Positions 19,451 through 63,086 of a stretch of DNA of 64,000 bases are shown one piece after another. Made by a program: the position numbers and the translations under genes. The DNA lies in the IMG/VR virus record IMGVR_UViG_3300028840_001835, one strand, 5' to 3'. The notes below the pieces were generated by a model that worked only from the letters and a program-made list of their open reading frames with translations, was not told the DNA's origin and ran no database searches. Source of the DNA: a virus. Taxonomy: Duplodnaviria; Caudoviricetes. The first letter of the stretch is position 1. Each line of letters begins with the position of its first letter.

Positions 19451-20807
19451 TAGATATAAAGTTCCAACGATGGACGAGGTTCATAAACTATCCTCACAGG
19501 AAAAGTTCAATGTGATTTCATTGTTCGCTGGTATGGGTGGAAGCTCTACTGGTTACCGAATGGCGGGTGCAAAGATACTCGCAGTCAATGAATTTATGAA
19601 GGCGGCTAGGTCAATATATAATAGAAACTATCCAGATACATATATATTCCCCGATGATATACGAACACTAAATGGTGTTCAGATGTTAAAGAAACTTGGT
19701 CTTAAGGTTGGAGAACTTGATCTTCTTGATGGCTCACCTCCTTGCGCCTCATTCTCCATGGCCGGAAAACGGAAGAAGATGTGGGGCGAGGTGAAGGGAT
19801 ATTCATCCACAAAGCAGCGTGTGGACGATCTGTTCTATGAATTTTCAAGGATACTTAAAGATATGCAACCCAAGACCTTCATAGCAGAGAACGTGAAGGG
19901 GCTTGCGCTTGGTGATGTAAAGGCTCTGCTCGGAAACAAGGGTAAGGGACTGGAGAACTTTTTTGGTAAGGCGAGGAATGTGGGTATCATTCATGAGAAG
20001 GATAACATAATTAAGACACTAAGAGCGTGTGGATACAAGGTGTCTTATAAGGTTCTGAATTCAATAGAGTTCGGCGTTCCGCAAATAAGGGAGAGGTTGA
20101 TTTTTGTTGGCGTACGGGATGATCTTGGAATGAGCCCATCATTCCCAGAGGGGAATAAGGGGTTTCGGCAGAGACCGATAAAGGCGGGAGATGTGATGTT
20201 TCCATTCATATTCAACGGCTGTGAGAGGAATCTGACCCACGGGACGAAGGAGTGGGACTATATACATAACTGGTTTAAACCATTAACCACCCTTCATCAG
20301 GTGACCAAGATAGCAAAGAAGAACAACCTCAAAGCGTTCTGCCAGAGGATGCCACGGGATAACTGGTTCTACCCTCATCGGACGATCCTCCAATCAGACT
20401 ATAACATTCATGCGCTGGTCAATAGATACACGGCCGTGAACGAATCAAAATTACTTCAATCATTCCCATCAGACTTTGATGTACTGGGTCAGCCATTCAA
20501 GAGAATAAAAGTTTCAGTCAACGATTTACTTAAAAAGAAATTCAATTGTTATAATTTTCAAGCAGGACAGGACTCTGGAGATATACCATACATTTGTTCT
20601 CTCGTAGATTTTCCAAAGGAACGTTGGGATGAAAAATGTTTCTATCTTGATTTAAAGGAACCAGAGATTAAAGTTGATACCAAGTCACAATATTACAATA
20701 TACTTGGACATAGTAAGTCAAATGAATTTGTTGGAAGGGCCGTTCCTCCTCTATTGATGAAGGCAGTCGCGGAGCATGTATATGAAAAAATCATCTCAAA
20801 AATATAA
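19431..20807 (+). CDS. C5-cytosine DNA methyltransferase homologue 2 (candidate carboxymethyltransferase)
   Basis: SLFAGMGG, GSPPC, ENV, PQIRER, QSFPSDF, motif X variant VGRAVPP; clear paralogue of 17343..18665. Confidence 0.9.
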   Translation: MNMYMDDRYKVPTMDEVHKLSSQEKFNVISLFAGMGGSSTGYRMAGAKILAVNEFMKAARSIYNRNYPDTYIFPDDIRTLNGVQMLKKLGLKVGELDLLDGSPPCASFSMAGKRKKMWGEVKGYSSTKQRVDDLFYEFSRILKDMQPKTFIAENVKGLALGDVKALLGNKGKGLENFFGKARNVGIIHEKDNIIKTLRACGYKVSYKVLNSIEFGVPQIRERLIFVGVRDDLGMSPSFPEGNKGFRQRPIKAGDVMFPFIFNGCERNLTHGTKEWDYIHNWFKPLTTLHQVTKIAKKNNLKAFCQRMPRDNWFYPHRTILQSDYNIHALVNRYTAVNESKLLQSFPSDFDVLGQPFKRIKVSVNDLLKKKFNCYNFQAGQDSGDIPYICSLVDFPKERWDEKCFYLDLKEPEIKVDTKSQYYNILGHSKSNEFVGRAVPPLLMKAVAEHVYEKIISKI

Positions 20808-21156
20808 ACTGCCAGAATTTGAAAATTTATCAATTCCATTAATAAGGAGACAGTTTCCAAAATTATTTGCTAATAAGATTGTTAATGTTCAACCAATGAA
20901 CGGACCGTCTGGGTTGGCTTATGCGTTTATAAACGAGGAAATAAGAAAATTGATAATTAGAATCACGACAAAGAATCAGGCGTTATTATATGTGACCCAT
21001 AATAATAGATTTGTTAGAGAACATTGTATAAACATATTAAAGGAAAAAAACAAAAATGGGAATCGGAGTAAAACTAGGAAATCCTCTAGAAGAAAAACCA
21101 ATCGATCATTTAATGATGAAACTAATGGCTCAGGAGATTCAAAAAGAGATCGATAA
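20776..21156 (+). CDS. Small protein containing a gp23 (major capsid)-like fragment
   Basis: IPLIRRQFPKLFANKIVNVQPMNGPSGLAYAF resembles T4 gp23 MVRRAIPNLIAFDICGVQPMNSPTGQVFA. Confidence 0.55.
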   Translation: MYMKKSSQKYKLPEFENLSIPLIRRQFPKLFANKIVNVQPMNGPSGLAYAFINEEIRKLIIRITTKNQALLYVTHNNRFVREHCINILKEKNKNGNRSKTRKSSRRKTNRSFNDETNGSGDSKRDR

Positions 21157-27932: not shown

Positions 27933-27940
27933 TATAAATA
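27933..27940 (+). promoter_or_regulatory. T4-type late promoter heading the capsid-targeted gene array
   Basis: Intergenic TATAAATA 33 nt before the ATG at 27974. Confidence 0.75.
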
Positions 27941-27973: not shown

Positions 27974-29446
27974 ATGACAAGATTTAAAGATTTTATAACA
28001 GAGGCGTTCAAGGTCGAACAGGCTGGCAAAATGGTCGGGATCATTAAAAAGGTTCTTGAGAAACGTCTTGGAAAGAAATTATTCGATTACGGCGAAAGGG
28101 TGTTTGATGCCAAGGGCGGTCAAATGCATGGTATATTACTCGGCATAGACGGTTCTCCAAAAGCCATTCAGTTTAATTTCAAGGGTGGTGGAAAACTCAC
28201 CCAGATCCATTCCGTCGATATTTGGGATGCTACGGATAGTCCGGATCCTGCCGTAAACATTGAAACAAAAGGTCTATCAATTATTAAGATACTCCCGGCT
28301 ATAGTGAGTTTCATAGAGAAACCTGTGGTCAAGAAAGACATATTGGTCGCACCAATACAAGAGATGAGAGTGATGGACAAGGACACGATCCTAAGTGAAG
28401 GTCTTGTTGAATATGATGGAAAAGACTTTGCCTCCAAATCAGACGCCGCAATTCATGCCCTGGAACAGGGAAAGGACTCAAGATTTATTAGAAGAAATTT
28501 TGGTTTCTCCATGGCCAATCTTCAAAAGAAACTTGAGAAACTCCAAAAGAAGGGAAAGGCAACAAAGACAAAAGCATCGGCACTTGAGAAATTAAAAGTA
28601 AATCGTGGAAAGAAACTTAAAATAGTTCCCGGTTCTGATGTGAAGAAATCTTCAAAACAACTTGCCAACATCCAATATGCAGATCCAAAAACAATATTCA
28701 AAGATTTGGAATCGTTGGTCAATATGATTATTTCTGGAATCCAACCGTCCCTTCTCATAACAGGAATGGCAGGTATCGGAAAAACATTCACAGTTCAGAA
28801 GCAGCTCAAGGCCGCAGGTAAGGTGAAAGGTCAGGACTTCGTTGTGAAGAAAGGAGCCGTGTCACCATTTGGTCTATATAGAACATTATTCATTAATAGA
28901 AAAAGAATAGTGGTATTTGATGACTCTGACGATGTATTTAAAGACGCAACAGCAAAGAACATTTTGAAGGCCGCTCTTGACTCACACGATGTAAGGGATA
29001 TATCATGGGAAAGTAAGAACACCTATCCAATCAATCCTCTAGATCCCCTCTCAGACGATGAGATGGATTCTCTGGCACTTGGAGAGAAACCAATGTTTCC
29101 AAGTAACTTCATATTTGATGGTCAGGTGATCTTTATCTCTAACTTGAACATAAATCAAATTGACGCAGCCGTTAAGTCAAGGTCTTTTGCCATTGATGTG
29201 ACTCTAAAAGCGACAGATGTTTTCGCTAGGATGGAGTCGGTTCTTGACAAGATGATTCCTGATGTAGTGATCTTTGGTCAGAAAAAGACCGTTCCTATGA
29301 GTGTAAAGAAAGAAGTTCTGGAGATACTAAAGAAGGACGGAGTTGATCTGAACAAGGAAGCCAACATGAGAACGTTTCTTAATGCTGTTAAGATCAGAAT
29401 GTCTGGCGATCCAAACTGGCGACAGATGATGATCCGTTTTGCATAA
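27974..29446 (+). CDS. AAA+ ATPase with capsid-targeting-like N-terminus
   Basis: Walker A GMAGIGKT, Walker B VFDDSD, IFISN, KSRS, NMRTF; starts MTRFKDFITE. Confidence 0.85.
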   Translation: MTRFKDFITEAFKVEQAGKMVGIIKKVLEKRLGKKLFDYGERVFDAKGGQMHGILLGIDGSPKAIQFNFKGGGKLTQIHSVDIWDATDSPDPAVNIETKGLSIIKILPAIVSFIEKPVVKKDILVAPIQEMRVMDKDTILSEGLVEYDGKDFASKSDAAIHALEQGKDSRFIRRNFGFSMANLQKKLEKLQKKGKATKTKASALEKLKVNRGKKLKIVPGSDVKKSSKQLANIQYADPKTIFKDLESLVNMIISGIQPSLLITGMAGIGKTFTVQKQLKAAGKVKGQDFVVKKGAVSPFGLYRTLFINRKRIVVFDDSDDVFKDATAKNILKAALDSHDVRDISWESKNTYPINPLDPLSDDEMDSLALGEKPMFPSNFIFDGQVIFISNLNINQIDAAVKSRSFAIDVTLKATDVFARMESVLDKMIPDVVIFGQKKTVPMSVKKEVLEILKKDGVDLNKEANMRTFLNAVKIRMSGDPNWRQMMIRFA

Positions 29447-29455
29447 GAGGTATAC

Positions 29456-30409
29456 ATGAGAAGATTCAAAGACTTCTATTTAAACGAAGCTATAAACACC
29501 CACGAGGCCGATATAAATGAGATACTTGTTGGATTCTATATATTGGGTCAAGGAAACAAAGGTTCATGGAAAGGTTTTCAGGATGCAGCTTCAGCTAAGA
29601 AACAACTAGCAGCAAAAAGAAAGATTGTTGGGATGTTTGCCTATGGTCTTAGATCCGGTCAGGCAAGAACGATGGCCGAGGAGATCAAGAAATGGGCAAA
29701 GAAGAATGGATATAAAGGCGAACCTGTAAAGGTCTATTGGACTGCGAGAAAAGGTGTTCTATCAAAGGCCGTTGGACAGCAAGTTGATTCTGCAAAGAAC
29801 CCGACCGATACATTGATAGAATATCCAAAAGGTAAGTTCTTAGGTATATCGGCAAAGTCAACCAAACAGAAGGCGGATATCGGTTTCAAGAATCCAGGGA
29901 TGGGAACAGTTGAAAAAGCACTCAAAATAAATCTCGGAAAGATATTAGAGGACGCAGAGAAAGTCATTATAAAGAAACACAAATTATCTCCAAGTAGACC
30001 AAAGAGAAAATTAGAGATACGTGCAGATGCTAATCTTCAAAAAAAGACTAAAGAGGCTGGAAGAAAAGTTCTCTCTGACATGGCCGATGTATTAATGGCT
30101 AAACTTAAAAAGATGAAGCAGAAGGATCTACTTAATTATATACTTGACGATTGGATGGACGCAAAAGATACATTTCCTCCATATATAAAAGTAACAGGTA
30201 TGGGTTCAAAGGAACCTTTTTCTGCAAACATAACAGACCCATTAAGAAACGAGAAATTAGACAAATTATATTCATCCAAGATTACAATTGATAAGACGGG
30301 TAATGATAATGTTATCATCTCTGCTGGTGGAAAGCGAATAATGATGATGCGCCCGAAGTTCGCCTCTGAACAGATGGCGAGTAATATCAAATTTAGTGGC
30401 CAACCATAA
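29456..30409 (+). CDS. PD-(D/E)xK-like nuclease fold protein with capsid-targeting-like N-terminus
   Basis: E...NPTD...GISAK pattern; starts MRRFKDFYLNE. Confidence 0.55.
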   Translation: MRRFKDFYLNEAINTHEADINEILVGFYILGQGNKGSWKGFQDAASAKKQLAAKRKIVGMFAYGLRSGQARTMAEEIKKWAKKNGYKGEPVKVYWTARKGVLSKAVGQQVDSAKNPTDTLIEYPKGKFLGISAKSTKQKADIGFKNPGMGTVEKALKINLGKILEDAEKVIIKKHKLSPSRPKRKLEIRADANLQKKTKEAGRKVLSDMADVLMAKLKKMKQKDLLNYILDDWMDAKDTFPPYIKVTGMGSKEPFSANITDPLRNEKLDKLYSSKITIDKTGNDNVIISAGGKRIMMMRPKFASEQMASNIKFSGQP

Positions 30410-30412
30410 ATA

Positions 30413-30736
30413 ATGAAATATCTATTATGTATATTATTGACCTTGTTATTATCATGTACATCAACAACAAGGCCTTTAAGTGAACGAGGATTGAGTCAAT
30501 CAAAACGGGTTGAGTATATTGAGAAAAATGGTGCTAGATATTCACCAAAGACCAAGCAACAATTCATAGAGAAAAGAATTGGCCCCGGATTCGATAGAGA
30601 CTTGGTCGAGATAATGTATGGGAAACCAAACATGGTTGTTCAAGATAGTATATGGTACTATACCGATAAATGGGGAGACGCTTTGATACGAATTGAGTTT
30701 GAGTCCAGCGGATTTGTAAAGACAGCAGAAAGGTGA
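30413..30736 (+). CDS. Lipoprotein, SmpA/BamE-like
   Basis: Lipobox LLLSC; IGPGFDRDLVEIMYGKP...WYY resembles the SmpA/OmlA motif. CATAAATA at 30405. Confidence 0.6.
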   Translation: MKYLLCILLTLLLSCTSTTRPLSERGLSQSKRVEYIEKNGARYSPKTKQQFIEKRIGPGFDRDLVEIMYGKPNMVVQDSIWYYTDKWGDALIRIEFESSGFVKTAER

Positions 30737-31218
30737 TGAGAATGAGATTTGAACAACTACTGGCAGAAGGCAAAACAGTTACCGCCGGAATACTTCAATA
30801 TAGATTCAAAGGAAATACACTTCAAGTGTTTCTTGCAAAACCAGGAGGCCCTCTCTGGAAAGGACGAGATGATGGCTCTTGGTCGATTCCAAAAGGAAAA
30901 GTCAATGATGGGGAGACGCCAAAAAGGGCGGCCGTTCGTGAGTTTAGTGAGGAGATTGGAGTCCGTCCAGTAACCAAAAACATGATGAGTCTTGGTTCTG
31001 CACCGCTTGCCAATAAAACAATGTATGTATGGGCCGTCGAGGGTGAAAAAGAATTCAAGCGAAGTAATACATTTGAGATGGAATGGCCTCCAAAGAGCGG
31101 TAAGATGAAAAAGTTCCCGGAGATCGAGACAGCAAGATTTTACAATATACCGGAAGCATTAAGAAAAATAAATCAAAGACAGAAGGTTTTCATAGAGAGA
31201 TTACAGGATAATTTATGA
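30733..31218 (+). CDS. NUDIX hydrolase
   Basis: NUDIX box GKVNDGETPKRAAVREFSEEIG; LAKPGGPLW, WSIPKG, FPEIE; MRFEQLLAE leader from 30742. Confidence 0.92.
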   Translation: MMRMRFEQLLAEGKTVTAGILQYRFKGNTLQVFLAKPGGPLWKGRDDGSWSIPKGKVNDGETPKRAAVREFSEEIGVRPVTKNMMSLGSAPLANKTMYVWAVEGEKEFKRSNTFEMEWPPKSGKMKKFPEIETARFYNIPEALRKINQRQKVFIERLQDNL

Positions 31219-31448
31219 ACTGGAGAGGATATATAGTATTATTGTTATTGTTAGGCTGTACTGCTTCTGCGACTTACAAAAAGGTAAAGGTGCGTGATAA
31301 GGTTGTCGATATATATTCTGAAGAAGATAAATGTATATATGTGTTTGAGCCAACGAATAATAAAAGGATATTGGTAAAAGATATATGTGGATTGTGCGCA
31401 GTTGGAGATACACTTATAAGAACAAAATATGTGGTGGAAGATAAATGA
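31215..31448 (+). CDS. Small lipoprotein
   Basis: Signal peptide with lipobox LLLGC. Confidence 0.6.
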   Translation: MNWRGYIVLLLLLGCTASATYKKVKVRDKVVDIYSEEDKCIYVFEPTNNKRILVKDICGLCAVGDTLIRTKYVVEDK

Positions 31449-32878
31449 GATTTCGTGATGTATATAATGAGAGGGTTTTAACCGAAGCGCAAAAGGTTTT
31501 TAAGGATTGGGAGGGTTACATAAAACGTATCCCGATTCTAAAGAAGGGCGTGGAGATACTTAAAGTGCTTGAGAAACACGGTCAGGCATACATTGTTGGT
31601 GGCGCCGTTCGTGATATAATCTCTGGAGAAAAGAAACCAGATGATATAGACATCGCAACGAATGTTCCAATGGAAAAGATTGAATCCTTATTCAAGACCC
31701 ATGACATTGGTGCCAATAAGGATTTTGGTATAGTCGTGGTTAAACACAAGGGTGAGGATTTTGAGATAGCTCAGTTTAGAAAAGATGGAACATATACGGA
31801 TGGTAGGCGGCCAGACAAGATAGAGGTTGTAGCAACATTTAAAGGAGATGCAGAGAGAAGGGATTTCACCATAAACGCCATGGCGGTCGATAGTAAGGGC
31901 AATATAATAGATCACTTTGATGGTCAGGGTGATATAAAGAATAAGACCCTAAGGGCCGTCGGCGACCCGGACAAAAGGTTTAGTGAGGATTACCTGAGAA
32001 TGCTCAGGGCGGTGAGATTTGCTTCTCGATTGGACCTCCAACTTGATCCAGAAGTAACAACAGCGATACAAAAGAGCTCCATTAAGATAAAGGACATAGC
32101 ACCCGAGCGGGTGACCAAGGAGCTCCTTAAGATGGCGAAACAAAAGGGTGGTAAGTTCGCTGACGCAATCGTGAAACTGGATCAAGTTGGACTCCTTCAT
32201 CATATACTTCCGGAAGTAGTAAAGATGAAAGAGTTTGAACATGATATAGAGAATCATCCCGAGGGCGGGGTGTATGCCCATACATTGGCAGCTCTTCGAG
32301 CAAGCGATTCCAAGGATCCAATAGTTAATCTATCAATTCTGCTACATGATATTGGAAAGATCAAAACAAAGAAGATGGATGAGAAGGGACGGATCACCTA
32401 TTTCCAACATCACAAAGAGGGTGCGGAGATGGTCGATCAGATAGCTCAGAGATTAAAATTGGACACCAAGACAAAAAACGCAATGAAGTTCGCCACTCTT
32501 AACCATATGAAAATACACGACTTACTAAAGATGAGTAATAAGAAAATTATTCAATTAATGAATGATCCAAATTGGGCAACCCTTTTAGCGGTCGGGGAAA
32601 TGGACGCACGTGCCCGCGGAAAGATGTTCAATAAGAAGGAGTGGGATGCCATCAAAGTCAAGATAGACGCCATTACACGGCAGTTCGCAGACAAGGGTAC
32701 TGACGCCCTCACCAACATACGAAAAGTCGTTACAGGCTCTCTAATCATGCGCTTAAAGAGAATCAAGCCGGGACCAGCTGTTGGTCGATATATTCAAAAG
32801 ACGGTCGATTGGATCGCGGACAATAACATAAATATTAAAGACGAGGCCAAGATAAAGAAATTTATCAAACAGCTATAG
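31445..32878 (+). CDS. cca: CCA-adding tRNA nucleotidyltransferase / poly(A) polymerase family with HD domain
   Basis: YIVGGAVRD, DIDIAT, RRDFTINAMA, EDYLRMLRAVRF, HPEGGVYAHT, LLHDIGK; starts MRFRDVYNE. Confidence 0.92.
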   Translation: MRFRDVYNERVLTEAQKVFKDWEGYIKRIPILKKGVEILKVLEKHGQAYIVGGAVRDIISGEKKPDDIDIATNVPMEKIESLFKTHDIGANKDFGIVVVKHKGEDFEIAQFRKDGTYTDGRRPDKIEVVATFKGDAERRDFTINAMAVDSKGNIIDHFDGQGDIKNKTLRAVGDPDKRFSEDYLRMLRAVRFASRLDLQLDPEVTTAIQKSSIKIKDIAPERVTKELLKMAKQKGGKFADAIVKLDQVGLLHHILPEVVKMKEFEHDIENHPEGGVYAHTLAALRASDSKDPIVNLSILLHDIGKIKTKKMDEKGRITYFQHHKEGAEMVDQIAQRLKLDTKTKNAMKFATLNHMKIHDLLKMSNKKIIQLMNDPNWATLLAVGEMDARARGKMFNKKEWDAIKVKIDAITRQFADKGTDALTNIRKVVTGSLIMRLKRIKPGPAVGRYIQKTVDWIADNNINIKDEAKIKKFIKQL

Positions 32879-32886
32879 GAGGAAAT

Positions 32887-33129
32887 ATGGACTTTAAGCA
32901 AGTTGTAAATGAAAAAATGACACCAAATCAAAGGAAAGATATCGGTGATGCCCTAAAGGCATTTGTTAATGTCGATGAAATGGATGAGGATGATATTGAA
33001 TTAATCACCCATCATATGACAGGCAAGGATGTTCCTTCTCAGAATGATACAAAAAGAACATATAAGAAATTATTTGAATTAGAGAAACAGTGGTCTAAAC
33101 TGGTTGATACGTTTGTCAAAAAACTATAG
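32887..33129 (+). CDS. Putative internal head protein
   Basis: Starts MDFKQVVNE; GGAGG RBS. Confidence 0.65.
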   Translation: MDFKQVVNEKMTPNQRKDIGDALKAFVNVDEMDEDDIELITHHMTGKDVPSQNDTKRTYKKLFELEKQWSKLVDTFVKKL

Positions 33130-33137
33130 GAGACACC

Positions 33138-33380
33138 ATGGGAAGATTCACTAAATTCATAATAGAAGATCAGAAGGCCGACATTAAGAAATTGATCAAT
33201 AATCCAAAGGAACTAAAGCTCATTATAAAAACAGGCGAGGTCGAAACTGACACCGATGCCTTTGATAAACTATACAAATACTTTACTGATAAGGGAATGA
33301 TGCCTTATGGTGTCGCCAAGGCAAGAACGGGCGATCCTGTCATTTGGTTAGGTCAACAGATTCAAAGGATATTCAAATAA
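33138..33380 (+). CDS. Putative internal head protein
   Basis: Starts MGRFTKFIIE; GGAG RBS. Confidence 0.65.
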   Translation: MGRFTKFIIEDQKADIKKLINNPKELKLIIKTGEVETDTDAFDKLYKYFTDKGMMPYGVAKARTGDPVIWLGQQIQRIFK

Positions 33381-33381
33381 A

Positions 33382-33792
33382 ATGAAATTCAAACATCTTC
33401 TCAATGAAAAATACATGAAAACCACCAAAGTAGATGGCGATGTTGTTGAGATTTTTGTCAATCCAGATCCCGGCGAGATAAAGGCCATAAGTAAAGCGGG
33501 TCTCTTTAAGGATGTTCGATTTGGTGTCGAGGATAAGAAGAACGGAAAGATATATGCCTGGACGGGTGACAAGATACATGAAAAGTTATTGAAGCATATA
33601 GACTTTGATTGGGCGTTTCAATGGACCCCTGGACAACCTGCACTTGGAAGTACATGGGCGCCTCAGTGGGTATCATTTAAAAACAAGGATAGTTTCAAAA
33701 AGAAGATTAAGAAACTTATACCCCAAGTCAAATACATCGGAATAATTGGAATGGACAAAGGAAGGTTAAAAAGTTTAAAGGTTGATCTATGA
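33382..33792 (+). CDS. Putative internal head protein, paralogue A
   Basis: MKFKHLLNEKYMKT..VEIFVNP..E..VRFG..KIYAW. Confidence 0.7.
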   Translation: MKFKHLLNEKYMKTTKVDGDVVEIFVNPDPGEIKAISKAGLFKDVRFGVEDKKNGKIYAWTGDKIHEKLLKHIDFDWAFQWTPGQPALGSTWAPQWVSFKNKDSFKKKIKKLIPQVKYIGIIGMDKGRLKSLKVDL

Positions 33793-34430
33793 AATTTACC
33801 GATCTTCTCAATGAGGAACAGGCGACTCACACAGAGTTGCTCTCTCATTTAAAGAAAATGGGAAGCAGTCCTGTGATGTATAGAGGACACAATCTAAAAT
33901 TCTCACACGGGGCAAACAAAATAAAAAACGACAGAAAGGATTTGGCGTTCAAAGGTAAGATATTGGATACAACACATGGAAAAATGCAGGCAATTCTTAA
34001 AGGGATTGGAATTTTAAAACCTGTCTTTGTTACAACCGCTCCAGCAAAAGCGTCTGTGTTTGGTCAGGTGTATGTAGTCATTCCGAAGGGCAAATGGAAT
34101 GTAAAATATTCAGAAGAGGTCAAGGACTTGACGGATGTTACTAAAAATAAAAAGACAGCAGCCGCATTGATAGATACATATAAAGACGGAATAAAGAAGA
34201 AATATGATGAACTTGTATTGGATACAAAGGAATATTTTTTACTTTCTCCTTCATTCTTTTTGAATCTATCTCCAAAGTGGGTTCAAGAAAAATTCAATTT
34301 GGTGAAGGGTTTTAGAGAGGGATCTGACGCTTATAGGAAGAGAGTTTTCAAGGAGCTGGATACATATAAGAAAGTATATGAAATGATAAAGGCATATGAT
34401 TCATATTATAAATGGAGAAAGAGTCAGTGA
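33789..34430 (+). CDS. Putative internal head protein, possible ADP-ribosyltransferase fold
   Basis: MKFTDLLNE leader; MYRG...FVTT..KASVFG.VYVV...YDELVL spaced like an R-S-E ART pattern. Confidence 0.45.
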   Translation: MKFTDLLNEEQATHTELLSHLKKMGSSPVMYRGHNLKFSHGANKIKNDRKDLAFKGKILDTTHGKMQAILKGIGILKPVFVTTAPAKASVFGQVYVVIPKGKWNVKYSEEVKDLTDVTKNKKTAAALIDTYKDGIKKKYDELVLDTKEYFLLSPSFFLNLSPKWVQEKFNLVKGFREGSDAYRKRVFKELDTYKKVYEMIKAYDSYYKWRKSQ

Positions 34431-34840
34431 AATTCAGAGATGTATTGGATGAAAAATATTTAAAGACTGTAAGGGCAAAAACATTTCCCGTTGGATATGA
34501 GACTGTGGAAGTATTTGAAAATCCAGCGCCAACCGAAATTCAATCAATAGCAAAACAATGGGGCGGCTCTGTTCGATTTGGTGTAATAGACAAACCAAAC
34601 GGAAAGATATATGCATGGGGAGGAGAAATACTTCACCCAAATATGAAAGAGAATCCAGATGGGGTTGACTTTGATTTTGGGTTTTACTATGAGTTTAGAA
34701 CACCTGAAATTATATATACAGATCAGAAGTATTCATTTGCAAGATTTAAAAACAAAAAGAAACTTATAGAAAGAATAAAGAAGATGTTACCAAAAGCAAA
34801 AACCTTTAGACCGTTTGGCGGAAAACCATTCAAGATTTAA
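34427..34840 (+). CDS. Putative internal head protein, paralogue B
   Basis: GTG start at 34427: (M)KFRDVLDEKYLKT..VEVFENP..E..VRFG..KIYAW. Confidence 0.7.
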   Translation: MKFRDVLDEKYLKTVRAKTFPVGYETVEVFENPAPTEIQSIAKQWGGSVRFGVIDKPNGKIYAWGGEILHPNMKENPDGVDFDFGFYYEFRTPEIIYTDQKYSFARFKNKKKLIERIKKMLPKAKTFRPFGGKPFKI

Positions 34841-34841
34841 A

Positions 34842-35258
34842 ATGAAATTTAGTGATCTTTTAAATGAAAAATATTTCAAGACTGTAAAGTTAAAGGGACG
34901 TGCTGTTGAGTTTTTTGTAAATCCTTCAAGTGATGAAGTAAGAAAAACGATTGATAAGGATGGATGGGGAGCCAGATTTTTCATTGAAGATAAAAAGAAA
35001 CCTAAGATATATGCATGGCCAGCGACATTTTTACATAGGGATGTTATCAAACATATACCAGGTAAAAAACTCTTTGGTTTTTACTATGAACCTGGAAGAG
35101 CACATTCTATTATGGGAGACAACTCCGTCGGATGGTTAAACTGGAAGGATGTCAAAAACAAAGAGGAAGTGATCGCTGCGATCAAGAAAATGTTACCCAA
35201 GGTCAAGTATAAAAGTTTTTGGCCAGAGTTAGGATTTAGTTATTTACATGAAATTTGA
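34842..35258 (+). CDS. Putative internal head protein, paralogue C
   Basis: ATG 34842: MKFSDLLNEKYFKT..VEFFVNP..E..ARFF..KIYAW. Confidence 0.7.
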   Translation: MKFSDLLNEKYFKTVKLKGRAVEFFVNPSSDEVRKTIDKDGWGARFFIEDKKKPKIYAWPATFLHRDVIKHIPGKKLFGFYYEPGRAHSIMGDNSVGWLNWKDVKNKEEVIAAIKKMLPKVKYKSFWPELGFSYLHEI

Positions 35259-36435
35259 AACAATATTAAACGAAGGGCAACTTGGAACCAAGAAGGCGAA
35301 GGTCTTTGAGACCGCGGTTGCCATGATCACTCCGTTTTATATAGAGAAAAGATTTTCCAACGCTATCAAATGTATCGAATACATTAAGAAAACCAGTAAC
35401 GATGTATTGATCAAGGAGCTAAATTCCCTTTTTCAGCGGTTTTTCGGGACCGGGAGCCCGGCCCTGATACTTGAATCTTTATTGAGTAATGAAAAATGGC
35501 TGGTCGGTACATGCTATACAGCAGAGGCAATTAAGAAAGAACTTAAGGCCACAAAAAAAGATACATTCCATAAAGATAGTGATGTAGTCAAGCAGCTCGA
35601 GGCACACGTTAAGAAACTACTCAAGGACGCCAATGTATCGGGCATGGATATAAACAAATGGAACCCCGCAGATGTATGGATGTTTAAGAATCCCACAAAG
35701 ACATTACGCACGATATTAAAATTCAAGACGATTGAAGATATAAACGAATATATGATGAGGGAGGCTAAGGGCGGCCGAAACATCGTTGGTATATCATTGA
35801 AGAAAGCCACAAAAAATCCCCCCGTTAAGTGGTTCAATATTGCCGAGATGTCGAAGGAAGCGGATGTCGAGCTTGATCAGATAAAGCATAATATTATGAC
35901 CAAGTTGACAGCCATGACCAAGGACGCTCTCCTCATCGATCTTGATGATAATATAAAGTTCCAGATTCGGAGTACCCGGAAGATTGGAACTCGGGTCAAG
36001 GGTGAGATCAAACAAAAGGGAAAGAAGGGACTTGCCGGGGGAGTAGGTTTTACTGCCATGGTTGGTTGGTTAGAAAAAAACACCAAAGGTAAAGTGATAC
36101 AGTTCTCTCGAAATGAGATAATAATAGATGAACAAATTAGTGAAAAGTTTTTAGGTTTCTTTCTACATATAATATTGGAACTCAAGAAAAGGAAGGAGTT
36201 GGATGTTGGCTTCCTTCGTAACTTCAAAGACATGAAAGACCTTGAAAAGGTGATAGAGGAATTGACCATAGAGAAGAAAGGCGATATAAACCAGGTCGGT
36301 GACATACTATCATCCAAGGTTCAAGCACTCCAGATAGCACTACACGCCAATGATGACTTTTTTAAATTCGTATATAAGTATTCCACAAGTAGCATAGGTA
36401 ATACATCATCGGTCTTTTTAAAGATTGGCGCATAA
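35248..36435 (+). CDS. PD-(D/E)xK-like nuclease fold protein with capsid-targeting-like N-terminus
   Basis: FETA...KWNPADVW...GISLKK; starts MKFETILNE. Confidence 0.55.
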   Translation: MKFETILNEGQLGTKKAKVFETAVAMITPFYIEKRFSNAIKCIEYIKKTSNDVLIKELNSLFQRFFGTGSPALILESLLSNEKWLVGTCYTAEAIKKELKATKKDTFHKDSDVVKQLEAHVKKLLKDANVSGMDINKWNPADVWMFKNPTKTLRTILKFKTIEDINEYMMREAKGGRNIVGISLKKATKNPPVKWFNIAEMSKEADVELDQIKHNIMTKLTAMTKDALLIDLDDNIKFQIRSTRKIGTRVKGEIKQKGKKGLAGGVGFTAMVGWLEKNTKGKVIQFSRNEIIIDEQISEKFLGFFLHIILELKKRKELDVGFLRNFKDMKDLEKVIEELTIEKKGDINQVGDILSSKVQALQIALHANDDFFKFVYKYSTSSIGNTSSVFLKIGA

Positions 36436-45337: not shown

Positions 45338-45598
45338 ATGGACATGATGGATTATAAAATGGAGATGAAGAGGCAGAAGGAGCCAAAGAGGTATGTTCTG
45401 TTCTGTCCCGAAGTAGGTGATCGATCAGGTCTCGGGTTCAACTCCTTCGATGAGAGATATCGTAAAGGCGAAGGCAACTATATGCCCCATCTGATCAGGT
45501 ATGGAGCCATGTTAAAGTGGTATCAGATCGTTGACACCCAGAATGATAACAAGGTTGTGGAAGAGAATTTTCAGGACGAGGATGATGAATTATTATGA
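45338..45598 (+). CDS. Hypothetical protein
   Basis: 86-aa ORF after the promoter. Confidence 0.6.
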   Translation: MDMMDYKMEMKRQKEPKRYVLFCPEVGDRSGLGFNSFDERYRKGEGNYMPHLIRYGAMLKWYQIVDTQNDNKVVEENFQDEDDELL

Positions 45599-46623
45599 AA
45601 GAGTTTAAGAAGTTTTCAAGTATAGAGAATAGTTACAGAGTCAAGTATCTGGAACTATTAAAACAGTATACTCTTGATGATGGTACATTTGTCGTATCAG
45701 AGAAGATACATGGTGCCAATTTTTCCATTTGGTACGATGGAACTGATCTCAAATGCGCCAAGAGAAGCGCCTTTCTAAAGGAGGATGATAATTTTTCCAA
45801 CTTTCAGGAAGTTCGTGATCGGCTACGTCCGAACATACAGAATCTTCACACCTTTCTTCGTGTGTCCCAGCAGAATATTGAGGACCCGCTCGAGGTCGCA
45901 GTGTATGGAGAACTGTTTGGTGGTTCGTATCCTCACAAGGATGTATCGGTAGATCCGGGGGCCAAGAAAATACAGAAGGGTATACATTATTGCCCTCACA
46001 ATGATTTCTACGCCTTCGATATAAGGGTAAACGGTGTGTACCTATCCGTACCAGAAGCCAATGATCTATTTAACAGGTTTGGGTTTCTTCATGCGGAGAC
46101 TTTATTTGAAGGTTCATTAAAGAACTGCCTGGAATATAAAAATGAATTCCAGACCACCGTCCCTGGTAAGTTTCAACTTCCACAGATTGATGATAACTTC
46201 TGCGAGGGTGTTGTTATAAGACCCGTAGAGCCAAGGTTTTTTCCTAACGGGTCCAGGGTCATTCTCAAGAACAAGAACGCCAAGTGGGAGGAAAAGAGTA
46301 AGGCAAGTGATAGAAAGCCAAAGATAGAGGTTCAACTGACTGACGAGGAACAAAGACTTTACCATGAATTTCATTCTCTCGTTACGGAGAACAGATTAGT
46401 GAATGTGTTATCCAAGTTCGGACCAGTTGGGCAAAAGGACTTTGGAAAGTTACTTGGGGAGTTCTCCAGGGATATATCGGAGGAGTTTAACAAGGATTTC
46501 AATGAGGCCTTCGGTGAGCTGAATAAGTCCGTTCAAAAAATTATCAAAGGTAAGGTCCAAAAGGCAGCAAGTAAGATAATAAGAGATCATTATGTGAACA
46601 TAATTGATGGAACATGGCCTTGA
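45595..46623 (+). CDS. rnlB: RNA ligase 2 (Rnl2 family)
   Basis: FKKFSSIENSY, motif I EKIHGANF, YGELFGG, FYAFDI, EGVVI, LKNK; C-terminal VTENRL.NVLSK.G. Confidence 0.93.
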   Translation: MKEFKKFSSIENSYRVKYLELLKQYTLDDGTFVVSEKIHGANFSIWYDGTDLKCAKRSAFLKEDDNFSNFQEVRDRLRPNIQNLHTFLRVSQQNIEDPLEVAVYGELFGGSYPHKDVSVDPGAKKIQKGIHYCPHNDFYAFDIRVNGVYLSVPEANDLFNRFGFLHAETLFEGSLKNCLEYKNEFQTTVPGKFQLPQIDDNFCEGVVIRPVEPRFFPNGSRVILKNKNAKWEEKSKASDRKPKIEVQLTDEEQRLYHEFHSLVTENRLVNVLSKFGPVGQKDFGKLLGEFSRDISEEFNKDFNEAFGELNKSVQKIIKGKVQKAASKIIRDHYVNIIDGTWP

Positions 46624-46689: not shown

Positions 46690-47313
46690 TTATCTACATT
46701 GTGGCCATGCACTACAACCTAAAAACTTCTTTCCAGCCCCTGGACCTCGCTTGGCTTTTCGTTCAACCAAGAATTCCCCGCACTTCTCACAGGTCTGTAA
46801 CTTGTATAGGGCATGATATTGTTCATTGACCTTCTTCTTTAACCTCTCAGCCCAACCAACAAGCCGGTTGATCCGTACCGACTTCCCGATCATCTTGTCT
46901 AACCGATTGTTATATAGAAACACTCGGATAGCGTCCTTTCCCTTTCTTCGGGAGATGCCCGCCTCATCAATGGAGGAGAGTATTCGAATGTATATATCTG
47001 GGTGTGATTTGAACGGGCGTTCATAAACCAGCTCCCTGGTGAAGCCATCTGATTCCGCAATCTGGAAACCGGCGGGTCGGACTATGTCCTCAAACTCCTT
47101 TCTCTCTATATAGACAAAGGCGTCCTTTTTTACCGCCTCTCCCTTTATAATCGCCACCGAGAGCCCGGCCACCCGCTTGTCATTCACCTTTGTGTTGATC
47201 AGGGCGAGGGCCTTATTCTCTTTGATCTCAGAGCACTTCTTCAATGACCGATGATCATCCTGCCTGGCCTTTTTCCAGTCCCGATTTCTCCAACGCATGA
47301 TGTATCCTTTCAA
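46690..47313 (-). CDS. Hypothetical protein with C-terminal topoisomerase-type C4 zinc finger
   Basis: CEKCGEFLVER...KFLGCSAWPQC; GKDAIRV motif. Confidence 0.7.
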   Translation of the reverse strand: MKGYIMRWRNRDWKKARQDDHRSLKKCSEIKENKALALINTKVNDKRVAGLSVAIIKGEAVKKDAFVYIERKEFEDIVRPAGFQIAESDGFTRELVYERPFKSHPDIYIRILSSIDEAGISRRKGKDAIRVFLYNNRLDKMIGKSVRINRLVGWAERLKKKVNEQYHALYKLQTCEKCGEFLVERKAKRGPGAGKKFLGCSAWPQCR

Positions 47314-48038
47314 TTCGATAACTTTGCGAATCTGTTTATATAGTCTGGGTCCTGTGAAAAGATCGGTATCTCCTTATCAATGAACCACTTTCCATCCTCC
47401 CCCTTCACAATACAGGTTCCGCGTTTCTCGATAGTTGGAAGATCATTGAAGTTGATCTTCTTCAAAAGAAAAAGCATGTCCTGGATCTGGTCACAGGATT
47501 TCTTATGTAGCTCTTTGTGAGAGAATTGAGAACGGCCTACCATCTGAATGGCATTACGTGTTGCGTCCTGCTGCCTCCAGAGGAATATGTTATATATCTC
47601 ATTCTCTGGAAGAACAAATCCCCGGCAATCAAAAAACGCACAAGGCATATTAATGTCCACATTATGAAATGCTCTAAATGCCTCATTAAATAACGCTGTC
47701 GCCATGGACGCAGTGACAGACGTGATCTTGTTTATCTTCTTACCAAACCATGGCTCGGTCTCAAAGGTCTGGTCGTCCCTTATAAGAATCGTTATCTCGT
47801 CAGATTGCGTGTATGCGATCTGTGCACCTGGTATCGTTTTGCAAAGGTCAAAAGATGTTCTTATCATAGAATCGATCAACCTATAGTCGAACGGCTTCCT
47901 ACATTTCCATTTCTTTACATTGGTGTGGAAGTGGACACCGTCCAGACGGAGAACGAGAGGCATCCGTATCGGATACTTGCCAGAGAAGGCTCGCTCGTAT
48001 TCTTTCATCCTATCGCCTAAGTTCATTCTCCCTCCCAT
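47310..48038 (-). CDS. thg1: tRNA-His guanylyltransferase / Thg1-like 3'-5' polymerase
   Basis: RMKEYE, RLDGVHFH, YTQSDEI, FDCR, WRQQDATRN, KRG. Confidence 0.93.
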   Translation of the reverse strand: MGGRMNLGDRMKEYERAFSGKYPIRMPLVLRLDGVHFHTNVKKWKCRKPFDYRLIDSMIRTSFDLCKTIPGAQIAYTQSDEITILIRDDQTFETEPWFGKKINKITSVTASMATALFNEAFRAFHNVDINMPCAFFDCRGFVLPENEIYNIFLWRQQDATRNAIQMVGRSQFSHKELHKKSCDQIQDMLFLLKKINFNDLPTIEKRGTCIVKGEDGKWFIDKEIPIFSQDPDYINRFAKLSN

Positions 48039-48235
48039 CCATCATGATATAACCGACGGCACTCTATACAACCGTGTGAGGAATCCATGTCTTTCGCAGT
48101 ACAACCATTGCAGTCATAAGAAGGATGTTCCACCTTTCCGTCGATACGAATCGCACCAGTTATCGTACACCAATCTACATTGGCAACCTCGATACTACTA
48201 TCCGATATCTTAACCCAGTTATGTTTAGCCATCAT
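48023..48235 (-). CDS. Small Cys-rich protein
   Basis: CNGC...CIEC. Confidence 0.5.
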   Translation of the reverse strand: MMAKHNWVKISDSSIEVANVDWCTITGAIRIDGKVEHPSYDCNGCTAKDMDSSHGCIECRRLYHDGWEGE

Positions 48236-49256
48236 CGTCCTCCTTGGTAATTGGTTTCAATATCTTCCAGATATACTCATCGTACCCCTTACCGTCAAGC
48301 ATCTTGAACACGACAGCCCACAGCTTATTGCTAATACTGTTCTTTATTGTGATTGCCTGCTCTTTCCTAGTAGAAAGATTCTTAACCCTCTCAAAGACAC
48401 CAAGGGCCAGAGCCTTGTTTGTATCGAACTCCTTCTCAAAGTTATCCTTGACCTCCTTGATCCACTTCTCAAACTCCTCAGGAAGATTCACCAGTATAGA
48501 ATCAAAGTCTGCACCATCCTTGAGCATCTCCCAAACAGCCTTCTCATTTAGACCGGTGACGATTCTGTGAAGTCTTACATACTCCTCAAACTTCATCTTT
48601 AGTCTAAACCCATTGTCAAACTTCACAACAAAGCCCTCAGAATTATTCTTATCATTCTTAGTTAGAACCCTAAAGTCCTTTACACCGTCATACTTCTTGA
48701 CGGTTGGCAAGGAAATATCATTAATTGAAAAATCAAACCCGGTCTCGTTATCTATGATGGCGAGAAGAAACAGATCTGTTACATCACCATAGTTTACCAC
48801 GATCCTGTTATCTGGATATATGATCTCAAACAGATAGGTGAATCCATCCTTGAAATGAAAATCCTTGTATCTATTTTCAAGTATCCTGTTGGCTACCCGA
48901 GCCTGCTCAGAGTCAAACGAACCGCGAGTTGCAATTCTGGGAGTACCATCGGGCATCTTGTATAAGATACCAAGAGAACCATCCAGCTTGTCATACACCT
49001 CAAAGGTCTCATTAGGTATCTGGATACCTAATCCAGGGAGCTCCTCATAGTTGAAAAACTTCGGGAAAGGCCGTGCAATTATCTCACCATACTCATTGAG
49101 TATCAACCCGCGACACATCATGTTGGTGCCGTTCCAACGCCTTTTGAACTGACAGTCCGGAGTGTAATTATATATGTAATAATCTACCTCTGGATGTTTC
49201 TTGACCATGACATTTCCAGCCTCAATCTCAGTCTGTATCTTATCTAGTAGAGTCAT
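48225..49256 (-). CDS. rnlA: RNA ligase 1 (T4 Rnl1-like)
   Basis: CRGLI...ARPFPKFFNY, motif I DKLDGSL, IATRGSF, YLFEII, EGFVV, LKMK..EY. Confidence 0.92.
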   Translation of the reverse strand: MTLLDKIQTEIEAGNVMVKKHPEVDYYIYNYTPDCQFKRRWNGTNMMCRGLILNEYGEIIARPFPKFFNYEELPGLGIQIPNETFEVYDKLDGSLGILYKMPDGTPRIATRGSFDSEQARVANRILENRYKDFHFKDGFTYLFEIIYPDNRIVVNYGDVTDLFLLAIIDNETGFDFSINDISLPTVKKYDGVKDFRVLTKNDKNNSEGFVVKFDNGFRLKMKFEEYVRLHRIVTGLNEKAVWEMLKDGADFDSILVNLPEEFEKWIKEVKDNFEKEFDTNKALALGVFERVKNLSTRKEQAITIKNSISNKLWAVVFKMLDGKGYDEYIWKILKPITKEDDDG

Positions 49257-54931: not shown

Positions 54932-55104
54932 ATAGACAAAAGATAGACTACACAGAAAGGTTTTTTCTCTGGCTGATAGGCTGGTGTAAAATACTGGACG
55001 GTATCATCATGGTGCTGTCCCTCACCCAACATCAAACTAATCTAACACAGAAGGCAGGTTCAACATTCACACAATGGAGACGTAAATCAGGGAGGTGCAG
55101 ATGA
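54928..55104 (+). CDS. Small hypothetical protein (58 aa, not in ORF track)
   Basis: ATGA overlaps at both ends; MNRQKIDYTERFFLWLIGWCKILDGIIMVLSL... Confidence 0.5.
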   Translation: MNRQKIDYTERFFLWLIGWCKILDGIIMVLSLTQHQTNLTQKAGSTFTQWRRKSGRCR

Positions 55105-55961
55105 AACAGGTTATAATGACAAAAGGTTTACCGGCGTCCGGGAAGTCCACATGGGCAAAGGACCTGATAACAAAACACCCCGGTGTATATAAGAGGGTGA
55201 ACAAGGACGATCTTCGTGCCATGCTGGACGTGAGTAAATGGTCTGGCTCCAATGAGAAGTTTGTACTAAAGATCAGGGATGAGATAATTCTGAAATCTCT
55301 GGATGAGGGCAAGCATGTCATAGTGGACGACACCAACCTTCATGAGAAACATGAGACACACATACATGATCTCATTAAGGGCAAGGCGGAGCTGCGGATT
55401 AAGGATTTCACCGATGTGGATCTGGACACCTGTCTCAAGAGGGACGCCAAACGTGAAGCCAGTGTTGGTAAGAAGGTCATTATGAGAATGTACAATCAGT
55501 ATCTTAGACCCGAGCCTGTAAAATACAAATTTACTCCTGGACGTTCAATATGTATTATCTGTGACATTGACGGAACGCTTGCAAAGATGGTTTCCAGAGG
55601 ACCATTCGAGTGGGACAAGGTTGATCAGGACGAAGTGAATGAACCCGTGAGGCATATCATAGAGAGATATACCATGTTTGACTCTGCATATAAGATCATC
55701 ATGCTCTCTGGTCGGGATGGTTCCTCAAGAGAACTGACCGAGAAGTGGCTGGAAGAGAATGGGATATTATACCATCATCTCTATATGAGAACTGCTGGCG
55801 ATTGTAGGAAGGACTCCATAGTCAAACGAGAGCTGTATGACAAATACATCGCCAAAACTTATAATGTACTTTTTGTTCTGGACGACAGGAATCAGGTTGT
55901 TGATATGTGGAGAAATGAGTTAGGTCTCACCTGTCTCCAGGTTGCTGAGGGTGATTTTTAA
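55101..55961 (+). CDS. pseT: Polynucleotide 5'-kinase/3'-phosphatase (PseT-like)
   Basis: GLPASGKST, RVNKDDLR, VDDTN; HAD domain CDIDGT, LSGR, MR..GD.RKD, VLDDR. Confidence 0.95.
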   Translation: MKQVIMTKGLPASGKSTWAKDLITKHPGVYKRVNKDDLRAMLDVSKWSGSNEKFVLKIRDEIILKSLDEGKHVIVDDTNLHEKHETHIHDLIKGKAELRIKDFTDVDLDTCLKRDAKREASVGKKVIMRMYNQYLRPEPVKYKFTPGRSICIICDIDGTLAKMVSRGPFEWDKVDQDEVNEPVRHIIERYTMFDSAYKIIMLSGRDGSSRELTEKWLEENGILYHHLYMRTAGDCRKDSIVKRELYDKYIAKTYNVLFVLDDRNQVVDMWRNELGLTCLQVAEGDF

Positions 55962-60401: not shown

Positions 60402-60480
60402 TGGTAGTCAGGGTGGGACTCGAACCCACACATTAATGCTTTTTGAAAGCACCGCCTCTACCAGATTGGGCTACCTGACC
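60402..60480 (-). tRNA. tRNA-Leu(CAA), short variable arm, encoded CCA
   Basis: Acceptor GGTCAGG/CCTGACT, anticodon arm GTGCT-TTCAAAA-AGCAT, T arm GTGGG-TTCGAGT-CCCAC, ACCA end; 79 nt. Confidence 0.85.
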
Positions 60481-60693
60481 TTGCTCTTTACATTCTTTTG
60501 CCTTGTCACACCAGGACATACATATCTTCTCTAAATTAGGATTTACCATCACTCTCTTACACTTGGGGCACTCCCTCTTTATATCATCCTTCCAGAACTC
60601 GATCTGTTCCTTACAGACCTTACACTGTATCTCAGTGATATCTTCTGGCTTCCAGAAGTTGGGATTCATCCCAGGACATCTATGTATCGGCAT
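60433..60693 (-). CDS. Cys-rich zinc-ribbon small protein, reading into tRNA-Leu
   Basis: CPG...CKVC..IEFWKD...CPKC...NP...C..WC..A..C. Confidence 0.7.
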   Translation of the reverse strand: MPIHRCPGMNPNFWKPEDITEIQCKVCKEQIEFWKDDIKRECPKCKRVMVNPNLEKICMSWCDKAKECKEQGQVAQSGRGGAFKKH

Positions 60694-60699
60694 ATTAAT

Positions 60700-60774
60700 T
60701 GGTGGGTCCGCCCGGAGTCGAACCGGATTCCCAAGGGTAAGAGCCTAGTGCATCGCCGTCAATGCTTCGGACCC
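60700..60774 (-). tRNA. tRNA-Lys(CTT), encoded CCA
   Basis: GGGTCCG/CGGACCC, D stem GCAT/ATGC, loop CTCTTAC, T loop TTCGACT, ACCA. Confidence 0.88.
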
Positions 60775-61424
60775 ATATATCTATTGTAAACTTGTCTATA
60801 TTTAGTTCTAATCTTTCTTATCTTTGCTTTGGGAACACCCTTACATATATTATATATATCTGAGGTCTGATCCCCAATTATATAAGCCTGAATCTCATCG
60901 TTAAAAACATCCTCACAATACTCCATTGTTGATAACCACTTTGTGATTGCTACCTTAACCTCCGTTGGAAGTTCAAATCTGGTCATCTTGTCAATTTCGT
61001 TTTTAAAATTCTCATTCAAATAATATAGGGCATGACACTTCTCATGTTTAAGCGCCGCCAAATCGCCAGCAGTCGCTATTAGATAAAAATGATCATCCAA
61101 TTCAAGATTAACACAGGCCTCCACAAGATGCTTTAGTATGACCTCCCTCTCTCTAAGATCGGTAAACCACTTGAAGAATTTTACAAGTGAGTTTCCGGGT
61201 ATGTTAAACCCCTCAACCTCATCAAAGTAATTAAACGAACCATGCTTCCTGGAATATAAATCCATGTATGTATCCAAGGTGAAATGCTTGCCCTTTATTT
61301 CTTCGAATGAGGACTCATAAAACTCCTGTGGTCTTAACATGGTTGAACATAAATCGAACTGTGTTGGAAACTTTAGATGGATTAACCCATCTTTAAAATT
61401 AACATGAACATCAACCTCTTTCAT
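60759..61424 (-). CDS. Hypothetical protein
   Basis: Likely start MKEVDVH at 61424; the track extension lies inside tRNA-Trp. R.QEFYES, YMD.Y, EGFNIP, HEKCHALY (HExxH-like). Confidence 0.7.
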   Translation of the reverse strand: MKEVDVHVNFKDGLIHLKFPTQFDLCSTMLRPQEFYESSFEEIKGKHFTLDTYMDLYSRKHGSFNYFDEVEGFNIPGNSLVKFFKWFTDLREREVILKHLVEACVNLELDDHFYLIATAGDLAALKHEKCHALYYLNENFKNEIDKMTRFELPTEVKVAITKWLSTMEYCEDVFNDEIQAYIIGDQTSDIYNICKGVPKAKIRKIRTKYRQVYNRYMGPKH

Positions 61425-61439
61425 AGAACCTCTCAAATT

Positions 61440-61513
61440 TGGCAGGCCGCCTAGGAATCGAACCCAGAGCTGATGGTTTGGAGCCATCCATGTTACCACT
61501 ACACCAACGACCT
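61440..61513 (-). tRNA. tRNA-Trp(CCA), encoded CCA
   Basis: AGGTCGT/GCGGCCT, anticodon arm GATGG-CTCCAAA-CCATC, T loop TTCGATT, GCCA end. Confidence 0.92.
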
Positions 61514-61521
61514 ATGATTAT

Positions 61522-62980: not shown

Positions 62981-62993
62981 AATTTCAATGTAG

Positions 62994-63071: not shown

Positions 63072-63086
63072 TTTATCCTATTTATA

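Follow-up and report, generated by a model that had tools for sequence, protein, structure and literature searches.

We describe a tRNA nucleotidyltransferase gene of an uncultured phage whose product opens with a short leader of the kind that directs proteins into the head of phage T4. The gene lies at positions 31445–32878 (+ strand) of a 64,000-nucleotide stretch of DNA (hereafter the window), part of IMG/VR record IMGVR_UViG_3300028840_001835, a complete virus record with terminal repeats, 202.5 kb and 351 open reading frames (ORFs). Its product is a CCA-type class II tRNA nucleotidyltransferase with an HD domain (477 aa, 54 kDa, pI 9.5). By analogy with T4, we think it fairly probable that this enzyme is a late product that carries a T4-type capsid targeting leader and is packaged in the virion, clipped, and injected for repair of tRNA 3' ends. 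Leaders that target proteins to the capsid are well known, and so are phage CCA enzymes; their combination appears to be new. Our literature searches found no publication joining the two, and they agree with the first-pass annotation of the window, made from the sequence alone, that no virion-packaged tRNA nucleotidyltransferase has been described.

An N-terminal leader of the T4 type

The protein begins MRFRDVYNERVLTE, and the tag MRFRDVYNE(RVLTE) claimed in the first-pass annotation reads as such in the translation. The leaders of the T4 internal proteins are about ten residues long (Met, basic, aromatic, any residue, acidic or polar, two hydrophobics, any residue, Glu) and end in hydrophobic-x-Glu (h-x-E). 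The leader here, MRFRDVYNE (residues 1–9; 31445–31471, +), follows this pattern with basic, aromatic, polar and acidic residues, two hydrophobics, x and Glu, and ends in Y-N-E. For comparison, T4 IPII and IPIII, translated from NC_000866, both begin MKTYQEFIAE and continue with Ala, and Alt, a 76-kDa enzyme that its RefSeq annotation places in the capsid and describes as entering with the DNA, begins MELITELFDE. The leader of a neighbouring gene, MTRFKDFITEA, matches T4 nearly residue for residue. In T4 the ten-residue leader is enough to direct foreign proteins to the scaffolding core, where gp21 cuts it off (PMC10229621, PMC3012670, PMC5694885); for the capsid targeting sequence of IPI, IPII, IPIII and Alt, PMC10229621 and PMC5694885 cite Mullaney and Black (1996).

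Two protease-type candidate sites of the h-x-E form are present, Y-N-E at residues 7–9 and L-T-E at residues 12–14, the latter within the segment RVLTE (residues 10–14; 31472–31486, +). T4 Alt has double h-x-E sites of the same kind. The second site aligns with the lone LTE of the closest homologue (P0002, 71% identity), whose leader reads MRFKTYYLTE, and a short insertion in the window protein creates both YNE9 and LTE14.

An AlphaFold model of the enzyme, built with an alignment of 120 relatives, has a mean pLDDT of 95. Residues 1–20 (31445–31504, +) form a flexible, low-confidence segment outside the fold, with a mean pLDDT of 47 for residues 1–10 and 59 for residues 11–20, and values are at least 95 from residue 21 onward. 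As modelled, both candidate cut sites lie in a floppy appendage, the removal of which would leave the enzyme intact. Residues 21–46 (31505–31582, +) comprise a clade-specific N-terminal extension, a helix with a conserved D-W-x-x-Y, followed by the canonical first head helix.

The strict leader pattern opens 26 of the 351 ORFs of the genome, against about four expected, an enrichment of roughly sixfold (the pattern occurs at 1.2% of internal Met positions, and shuffled N-termini gave a mean of 3.8 and a maximum of 9). Ten of the 26 sit in one 8.5-kb run that holds the CCA gene. Among the leader codons, positions 1 and 2 carry 1.07 bits and the wobble position 0.48 bits, in a set that was selected by its peptide pattern, and the leader genes share no nucleotide motif upstream beyond Shine-Dalgarno-like purines. 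Since the wobble positions are nearly random and nothing is shared upstream, the leader is a peptide signal, and a nucleotide-level motif of the start region was rejected on the same grounds, with the caveat that the set is peptide-selected. A complex prediction for the phage protease with residues 1–48 scored 0.01 against a mark of 0.32 and was not used as evidence.

A real leader could still have a different job, either as a pro-peptide that holds late enzymes inactive until it is clipped or as a docking tag for some other place. Against this, the leader is positionally very like the T4 leaders established by experiment, gp21 of T4 works within proheads (PMC5694885), and auto-inhibition is not suggested by the model, since the leader is disordered and far from the catalytic core. 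We regard this explanation as highly improbable.

Phage genome and late expression

By its gene content the phage is T4-like. The genome encodes a gp21-family prohead protease (Peptidase_S77, PF03420; 218 aa, 101.5 bits) and a Gp23 major capsid protein (PF07068; 272.8 bits) whose propeptide contains an L-F-E site, and the head genes stand in T4 order: portal, small core protein, protease, Glu-rich scaffold and major capsid protein. The T4-type late-promoter box TATAAATA occurs in 51 copies genome-wide, mostly intergenic and 14–54 nt ahead of the starts of structural genes.

The gene run that includes the CCA gene is preceded by one such box, at 27933–27940 (+), 33 nt ahead of the first leader-bearing gene. 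The run (27974–36435, +) is tightly packed, and most of its genes carry the leader; it encodes an AAA-type ATPase, an unknown protein of 317 aa, a NUDIX protein, the CCA enzyme and seven further unknowns. No further exact copy of the box is found between 27940 and the CCA start, and with a late box only at the head of the run, that the CCA gene is expressed late here is inferred from operon structure. The ATG of the CCA gene is the first start past an in-frame stop, and it overlaps the stop codon of the preceding lipoprotein-like ORF (ATGA). Two small leaderless ORFs interleaved in the run (30413–30736 and 31215–31448, both +) have lipoprotein-type signal peptides, Leu-rich and then Cys.

The arrangement is like that of T4 in several respects: the genome has a gp21-family protease, a scaffold and gp23, the cargo is basic, and the leader-bearing genes are clustered and encode otherwise unrelated proteins. 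It is unlike T4 in that the cargo is a tRNA nucleotidyltransferase, which is absent from the T4 gene set, in the larger set of leaders (the 26 ORFs with the strict pattern), in the Tyr at P3, and in that loading and cleavage are here predicted from sequence.

Distribution of the leader among relatives

Thousands of relatives were recovered from 5.8 billion proteins by a word-indexed search; the best 120 were used, and 115 of these are full-length. The leader or a clear variant of it is present in 109 of these 115 near relatives (about 95%), at 47–71% identity, and they also share the extension of about 25 residues with its conserved Trp helix. This extension, leader plus Trp-containing helix, is not found in cellular CCA enzymes. 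In a remoter set of 101 representatives, taken from an exhaustive HMMER search, 13 have the leader and most have a short N-terminus like that of cellular enzymes. When leader status was placed on a maximum-likelihood tree built without the N-terminal region, it changed 17 times, compared with 70 for shuffled labels; at least nine of the 17 changes are forced by supported branches, and some of them reflect truncated gene calls.

A single-protein scan of IMG/VR found no relative, whereas an alignment-based scan did retrieve relatives. In 51 IMG/VR loci the leader opens 23% of the ORFs near leader-bearing CCA genes and 2.7% of those near leaderless ones; the latter are concentrated in three contigs, and the only one of these tested has a T4-type protease. 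The leaders of CCA enzymes resemble the leaders of neighbours in their own genomes at 2.99 of 7 positions on average versus 2.58, and are closer in 9 of 15 loci, a difference that is weak and uninformative either way.

We looked for the prohead protease family PF03420 in 30 contigs. It is present in five leader-bearing contigs, which are all of those complete enough to judge, the other leader-bearing contigs being 23–78% complete, and it was not found in five contigs of 97–100% completeness with leaderless CCA genes. Among these 30 contigs the leader is thus confined to those that have a T4-type protease or are incomplete, although not all T4-like phages tag their CCA enzyme.

In several relatives the leader-bearing CCA gene is embedded in blocks of structural genes. 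In contigs of 168 and 179 kb (L087:10001–11398 and L088:10001–11407) it comes directly after portal, protease, scaffold (T4_CASP) and gp23. A copy of TATAAATA lies 29 nt before the CCA start in L087, and in L088 the box precedes the preceding, overlapping leader-bearing gene. In a 232-kb contig (L090) the leader-bearing CCA gene stands between gp5 and gp25/gp6. Two genes upstream of it, adjoining gp5, is a gene for a 201-aa RelA/SpoT-type HD hydrolase (L090:7413–8018, +; Pfam HD_4, 60 bits) with the leader MRFQNYLLFE. This hydrolase may be another enzyme that is injected, with tRNA ends or alarmones as its target, and it hints at a wider injected kit for tRNA ends.

Other features were seen beside these genes. 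A GIY-YIG homing endonuclease gene lies between gp23 and the CCA gene in L087. In another contig (L089) the CCA gene is surrounded by a long run of small leader-bearing ORFs, and genes for RlaP, NAD synthase and Thg1 (L089:18184–21327) are found 7–10 kb downstream of it.

Members of the same enzyme family are encoded by tRNA-rich or jumbo phages with RNA-repair genes, such as Atu_ph07 (gp18), XacN1 (ORF446) and CB7 (CB7_179) (PMC6102473, PMC5852040, PMC7344957, PMC7824862). Unlike the enzyme described here, these are described as serving cytoplasmic maturation and repair, and none is reported with a capsid targeting leader. A tblastn search against the phage collection gave identities of at most about 38%, and none of the cultured matches aligns over the leader. 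The one match that aligned from residue 2, MT839485, proved to be an artefact, with an ORF that begins MIQIQIPEK and has no leader, on a contig of bacterial appearance. The papers on Atu_ph07 and CB7 were also set aside as evidence for packaging, the CCA gene appearing there as annotation only, as was the only proteomic detection of such an enzyme in our searches, a peptide of the CCA-adding enzyme of phage SU10, which came from a PEG precipitate that according to its authors may hold non-virion proteins.

Identity of the enzyme

The first-pass annotation had named a class II nucleotidyltransferase with an HD domain, and Pfam recovers all three expected parts: a PolyA_pol head (residues 48–170, E 2.5e-30), a PolyA_pol_RNAbd region (residues 198–258, E 4.7e-11) and an HD domain (residues 294–359, E 1.4e-5; 25.8 bits against a cut-off of 22). 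In the pol-beta-type head (31586–31954, +), motif A (GGAVRD ... DIDIAT) and motif B (RRD) flank a flexible loop that has suffered no deletion. The head is followed by the neck or RNA-binding region (32036–32218, +), with motif D (EDYLR, residues 181–185) just upstream and motif E at residues 221–229, and by the HD phosphohydrolase domain (32324–32521, +).

The catalytic residues are well kept across the 120 relatives. In motif A (GGAVRD at residues 52–57, with D67 and D69) G52, G53, R56, D57 and D69 are invariant. Motifs B (R138-R139-D140), C (D156, G160 and D163), D (E181-D182 and R185) and E (E221-R222, E226 and K229) are invariant or at least 90% conserved, and the family-conserved HD residues H271, H301-D302, H322, H354 and D387 are at least 90% conserved. 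The flexible loop between motifs A and B is shortened in CC-adding enzymes, and its length decides whether A is added. In the phage protein the loop is full length, aligning without gaps to the Planococcus CCA-adding enzyme across FRKDGTYTDGRRPDKIEV.

Among solved structures, the CCA-adding enzymes of Planococcus halocryophilus and Geobacillus stearothermophilus match best by sequence (E about 1e-46), with weaker matches to E. coli poly(A) polymerase (1e-29) and the Aquifex A-adding enzyme (1e-19). A Foldseek search with the model also ranks the Planococcus and Geobacillus enzymes first, with target-normalised TM scores of 0.75–0.79 and 26–28% identity in the structural alignments. In its head and neck with motifs A–E and its full flexible loop the protein is like the bacterial class II CCA-adding enzymes (1MIV, 6IBP), and in its C-terminal HD phosphohydrolase it is like E. 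coli Cca. PMC6961547, citing Yakunin 2004, reports that the HD domain of the latter takes 2',3'-cyclic phosphates off damaged tRNA ends.

The top NCBIfam match is the CCA transferase NF009814, at 239.8 bits under an equivalog cut-off of 290, and TIGR02692 is not reached (204.6 versus 438.8). The E. coli-type equivalog NF008137, covering residues 47–394, scores 153 bits against 451; the enzyme thus shares the architecture of the multifunctional E. coli Cca, not its family, and it belongs to a diverged phage clade. Models of the poly(A) polymerase PcnB score lower than the CCA models (163.7 versus a cut-off of 305.65 for TIGR01942; 107.8 versus 702 for NF008634). With the equivalog cut-offs missed, CCA specificity is likely and not certain; we consider it probable that the protein is a true CCA-adding and repair enzyme, laid out as head, neck and HD domain like E. 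coli Cca.

The alternative is a tailing enzyme, packaged or not, that adds poly(A), A or C and marks host RNAs or tRNAs for decay in host shut-off. The head domain is common to class II CCA enzymes and bacterial poly(A) polymerases, the PcnB subfamily model TIGR01942 does give a substantial score, and no equivalog cut-off is passed. Nevertheless, every comparison scores higher for CCA models and structures, the EDxxR motif that serves as template is retained along with motif E and the whole flexible loop, and the head-neck-HD architecture resembles the multifunctional E. coli CCA and repair enzyme. We know of no PcnB with an HD domain. A tailing function thus seems quite improbable.

Phage tRNAs and other RNA-repair genes

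The window has four tRNA genes (Leu-caa, Lys-ctt, Trp-cca and Gly-tcc; 60402–63071, −), and in each of them ARAGORN finds an encoded CCA at the end, as the first-pass annotation had noted, and its conclusion that the enzyme is not needed for the phage tRNAs holds for these four. Genome-wide it does not hold fully. ARAGORN finds 37 tRNA genes and a transfer-messenger RNA (tmRNA), and CCA is encoded in 34 of the tRNAs and in the tmRNA. The three without it are Met-cat (G000:C1:14232–14306; window-relative 69859–69933), Ser-tga (G000:C1:6548–6631; 77534–77617) and Thr-cgt (G000:C1:2818–2889; 81276–81347). Of these, Rfam confirms Thr-cgt, at 36 bits, but not Met-cat, the call of which may therefore be a pseudo-tRNA; as Rfam misses every long-arm tRNA, it is silent on Ser-tga. 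Between one and three of the 37 phage tRNAs therefore lack an encoded CCA. The first-pass annotation had held that such tRNAs elsewhere would fully explain the gene; they provide part of an explanation and leave the leader unaccounted for. There is a small need for tRNA maturation, which would be met by unpackaged precursor.

Copies of TATAAATA lie directly after several tRNA genes (Val, a CUA suppressor, Thr-cgt and Tyr). The boxes by tRNA genes are at 63079–63086 (−) in the window and, beyond it, at window-relative positions 66192–83997 on the minus strand, and the tRNA arm may also be transcribed late.

These observations bear on the simplest alternative, an ordinary cytoplasmic CCA enzyme that matures the CCA-less tRNAs and repairs the 37 phage tRNAs, the tmRNA and host tRNAs, with a leader of no consequence, whether as a tolerated hitch-hiker from neighbouring genes or as a feature of late genes. 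Phages rich in tRNA genes commonly encode CCA enzymes (506 phage records match), reviews list these enzymes among tRNA maturation and repair genes (PMC7824862, PMC5852040), the three tRNAs found by ARAGORN, one of them confirmed by Rfam, offer substrates, and with late boxes among the tRNA genes a late enzyme could serve late tRNA synthesis. This reading does not explain why 95% of orthologues at 47–71% identity keep a leader of about ten residues that lies outside the fold, why the leader occurs in phages with an S77 protease, or why the gene is placed within the head and baseplate blocks of relatives; furthermore, a T4 leader by itself suffices for loading (PMC10229621). We consider a purely cytoplasmic role unlikely, albeit a serious alternative.

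Among the RNA-repair genes of this phage the CCA enzyme is singled out by its leader. Genes for Rnl2 (45595–46623, +), Thg1 (47310–48038, −), Rnl1 (48225–49256, −) and PNKP (55095–55961, +) make up a complete RNA-repair set; all are leaderless and lie outside the late run. The N-terminus of Rnl2, MKEFKKFSSIE, is superficially leader-like; we take this as a conserved feature of the Rnl2 family and left it out of the leader count.

Packaging and possible roles of the enzyme

Delivery in the virion, as suggested in the first-pass annotation, gains comparative support from the leader on most near orthologues, its occurrence with the S77 protease, the placement of the gene among late and structural genes in relatives and the position of the leader outside the fold; presence in virions, cleavage, injection and the kind of tRNA damage repaired we infer. 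By analogy with T4 IPI–III and Alt, the leader would dock part of the late-made enzyme pool into the prohead scaffolding core. The gp21-family protease would then clip after Glu9 and/or Glu14, and the mature basic enzyme (pI 9.5, ~52.5–53 kDa) would stay in the head and be ejected with the DNA into the next host. There it would restore CCA ends at once, before any phage protein can be made, with the HD domain removing 2',3'-cyclic or 3' phosphates from tRNA ends. Precursor left unpackaged late in infection would stay in the cytoplasm and act on the few phage tRNAs that lack CCA. A related route is followed by the virion RNA polymerase and ejection proteins of phiKZ and SPN3US, which are loaded into the head by N-terminal propeptides that a T4-related protease removes, and are then ejected (PMC5694885, PMC7411985); unlike the leader here, those propeptides are mostly longer than 100 residues, and the cargo is a transcription machine.

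Several observations weigh against packaging or against the assignment of the enzyme. The P3 residue of the first candidate site is Tyr instead of Leu or Ile, and none of the NCBIfam equivalog cut-offs is reached, even by the best match. The sole exact late box for the CCA gene lies 3.5 kb upstream, at the head of the run, and read-through from earlier promoters on the same strand may also drive the gene. The one to three CCA-less phage tRNAs are an ordinary reason to keep a CCA gene, and Rnl1, Rnl2, Thg1 and PNKP are leaderless. Six protease-bearing contigs have CCA genes with leaderless, fused or ambiguous N-termini, and as some T4-like contigs have leaderless CCA genes, packaging is not obligatory for the family. 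No leader-bearing CCA enzyme was found in the collection of cultured or deposited phages, and our literature searches found no virion proteome for this phage or a relative.

What a pre-made enzyme might repair is suggested by known defences. Cas12a3 cuts CCA tails, and how viruses might resist it is unknown according to its authors (PMC12851939); CapRel, like other toxSAS enzymes, attaches pyrophosphate to the CCA end (PMC9712102; 10.1101/2021.04.30.441581); and MenT toxins extend acceptor ends (PMC10435456). Damaged tRNA tails would block translation of a repair enzyme, and in that situation only a delivered enzyme would help. We tentatively suggest, as a possibility at somewhat less than even odds, that virions of a large uncultured T4-like clade inject a pre-made CCA-adding and HD enzyme that restores tails cut, blocked or extended by immunity, or eroded by starvation. 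A role against Cas12a3, CapRel and other toxSAS enzymes, or MenT-type toxins is a plausible hypothesis, and starvation erosion of tRNA ends in sediment hosts may be an alternative target.

Phage CCA enzymes have so far been read as housekeeping for phage tRNAs. If packaged, this one would be the first known case of a translation-repair enzyme carried by a virion, and the T4 internal-protein idea would widen from restriction inhibitors and an ADP-ribosyltransferase to RNA repair. Packaging would also solve a bootstrap problem, a phage without intact tRNA tails being unable to translate its own repair enzyme, and it is a candidate answer to the question of viral resistance to CCA-tail cleavage that the Cas12a3 study leaves open (PMC12851939). 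The leader is short, portable and kept on about a hundred orthologues, and the claim is hence directly testable.

We note one further ORF in the window with a link to the head genes. A 126-aa ORF in the replication arm (20776–21156, +) matches the N-terminal part of Pfam Gp23 at 35 bits; it lies far from the true gene for the major capsid protein and may represent a fragment or else a small protein resembling the major capsid propeptide.

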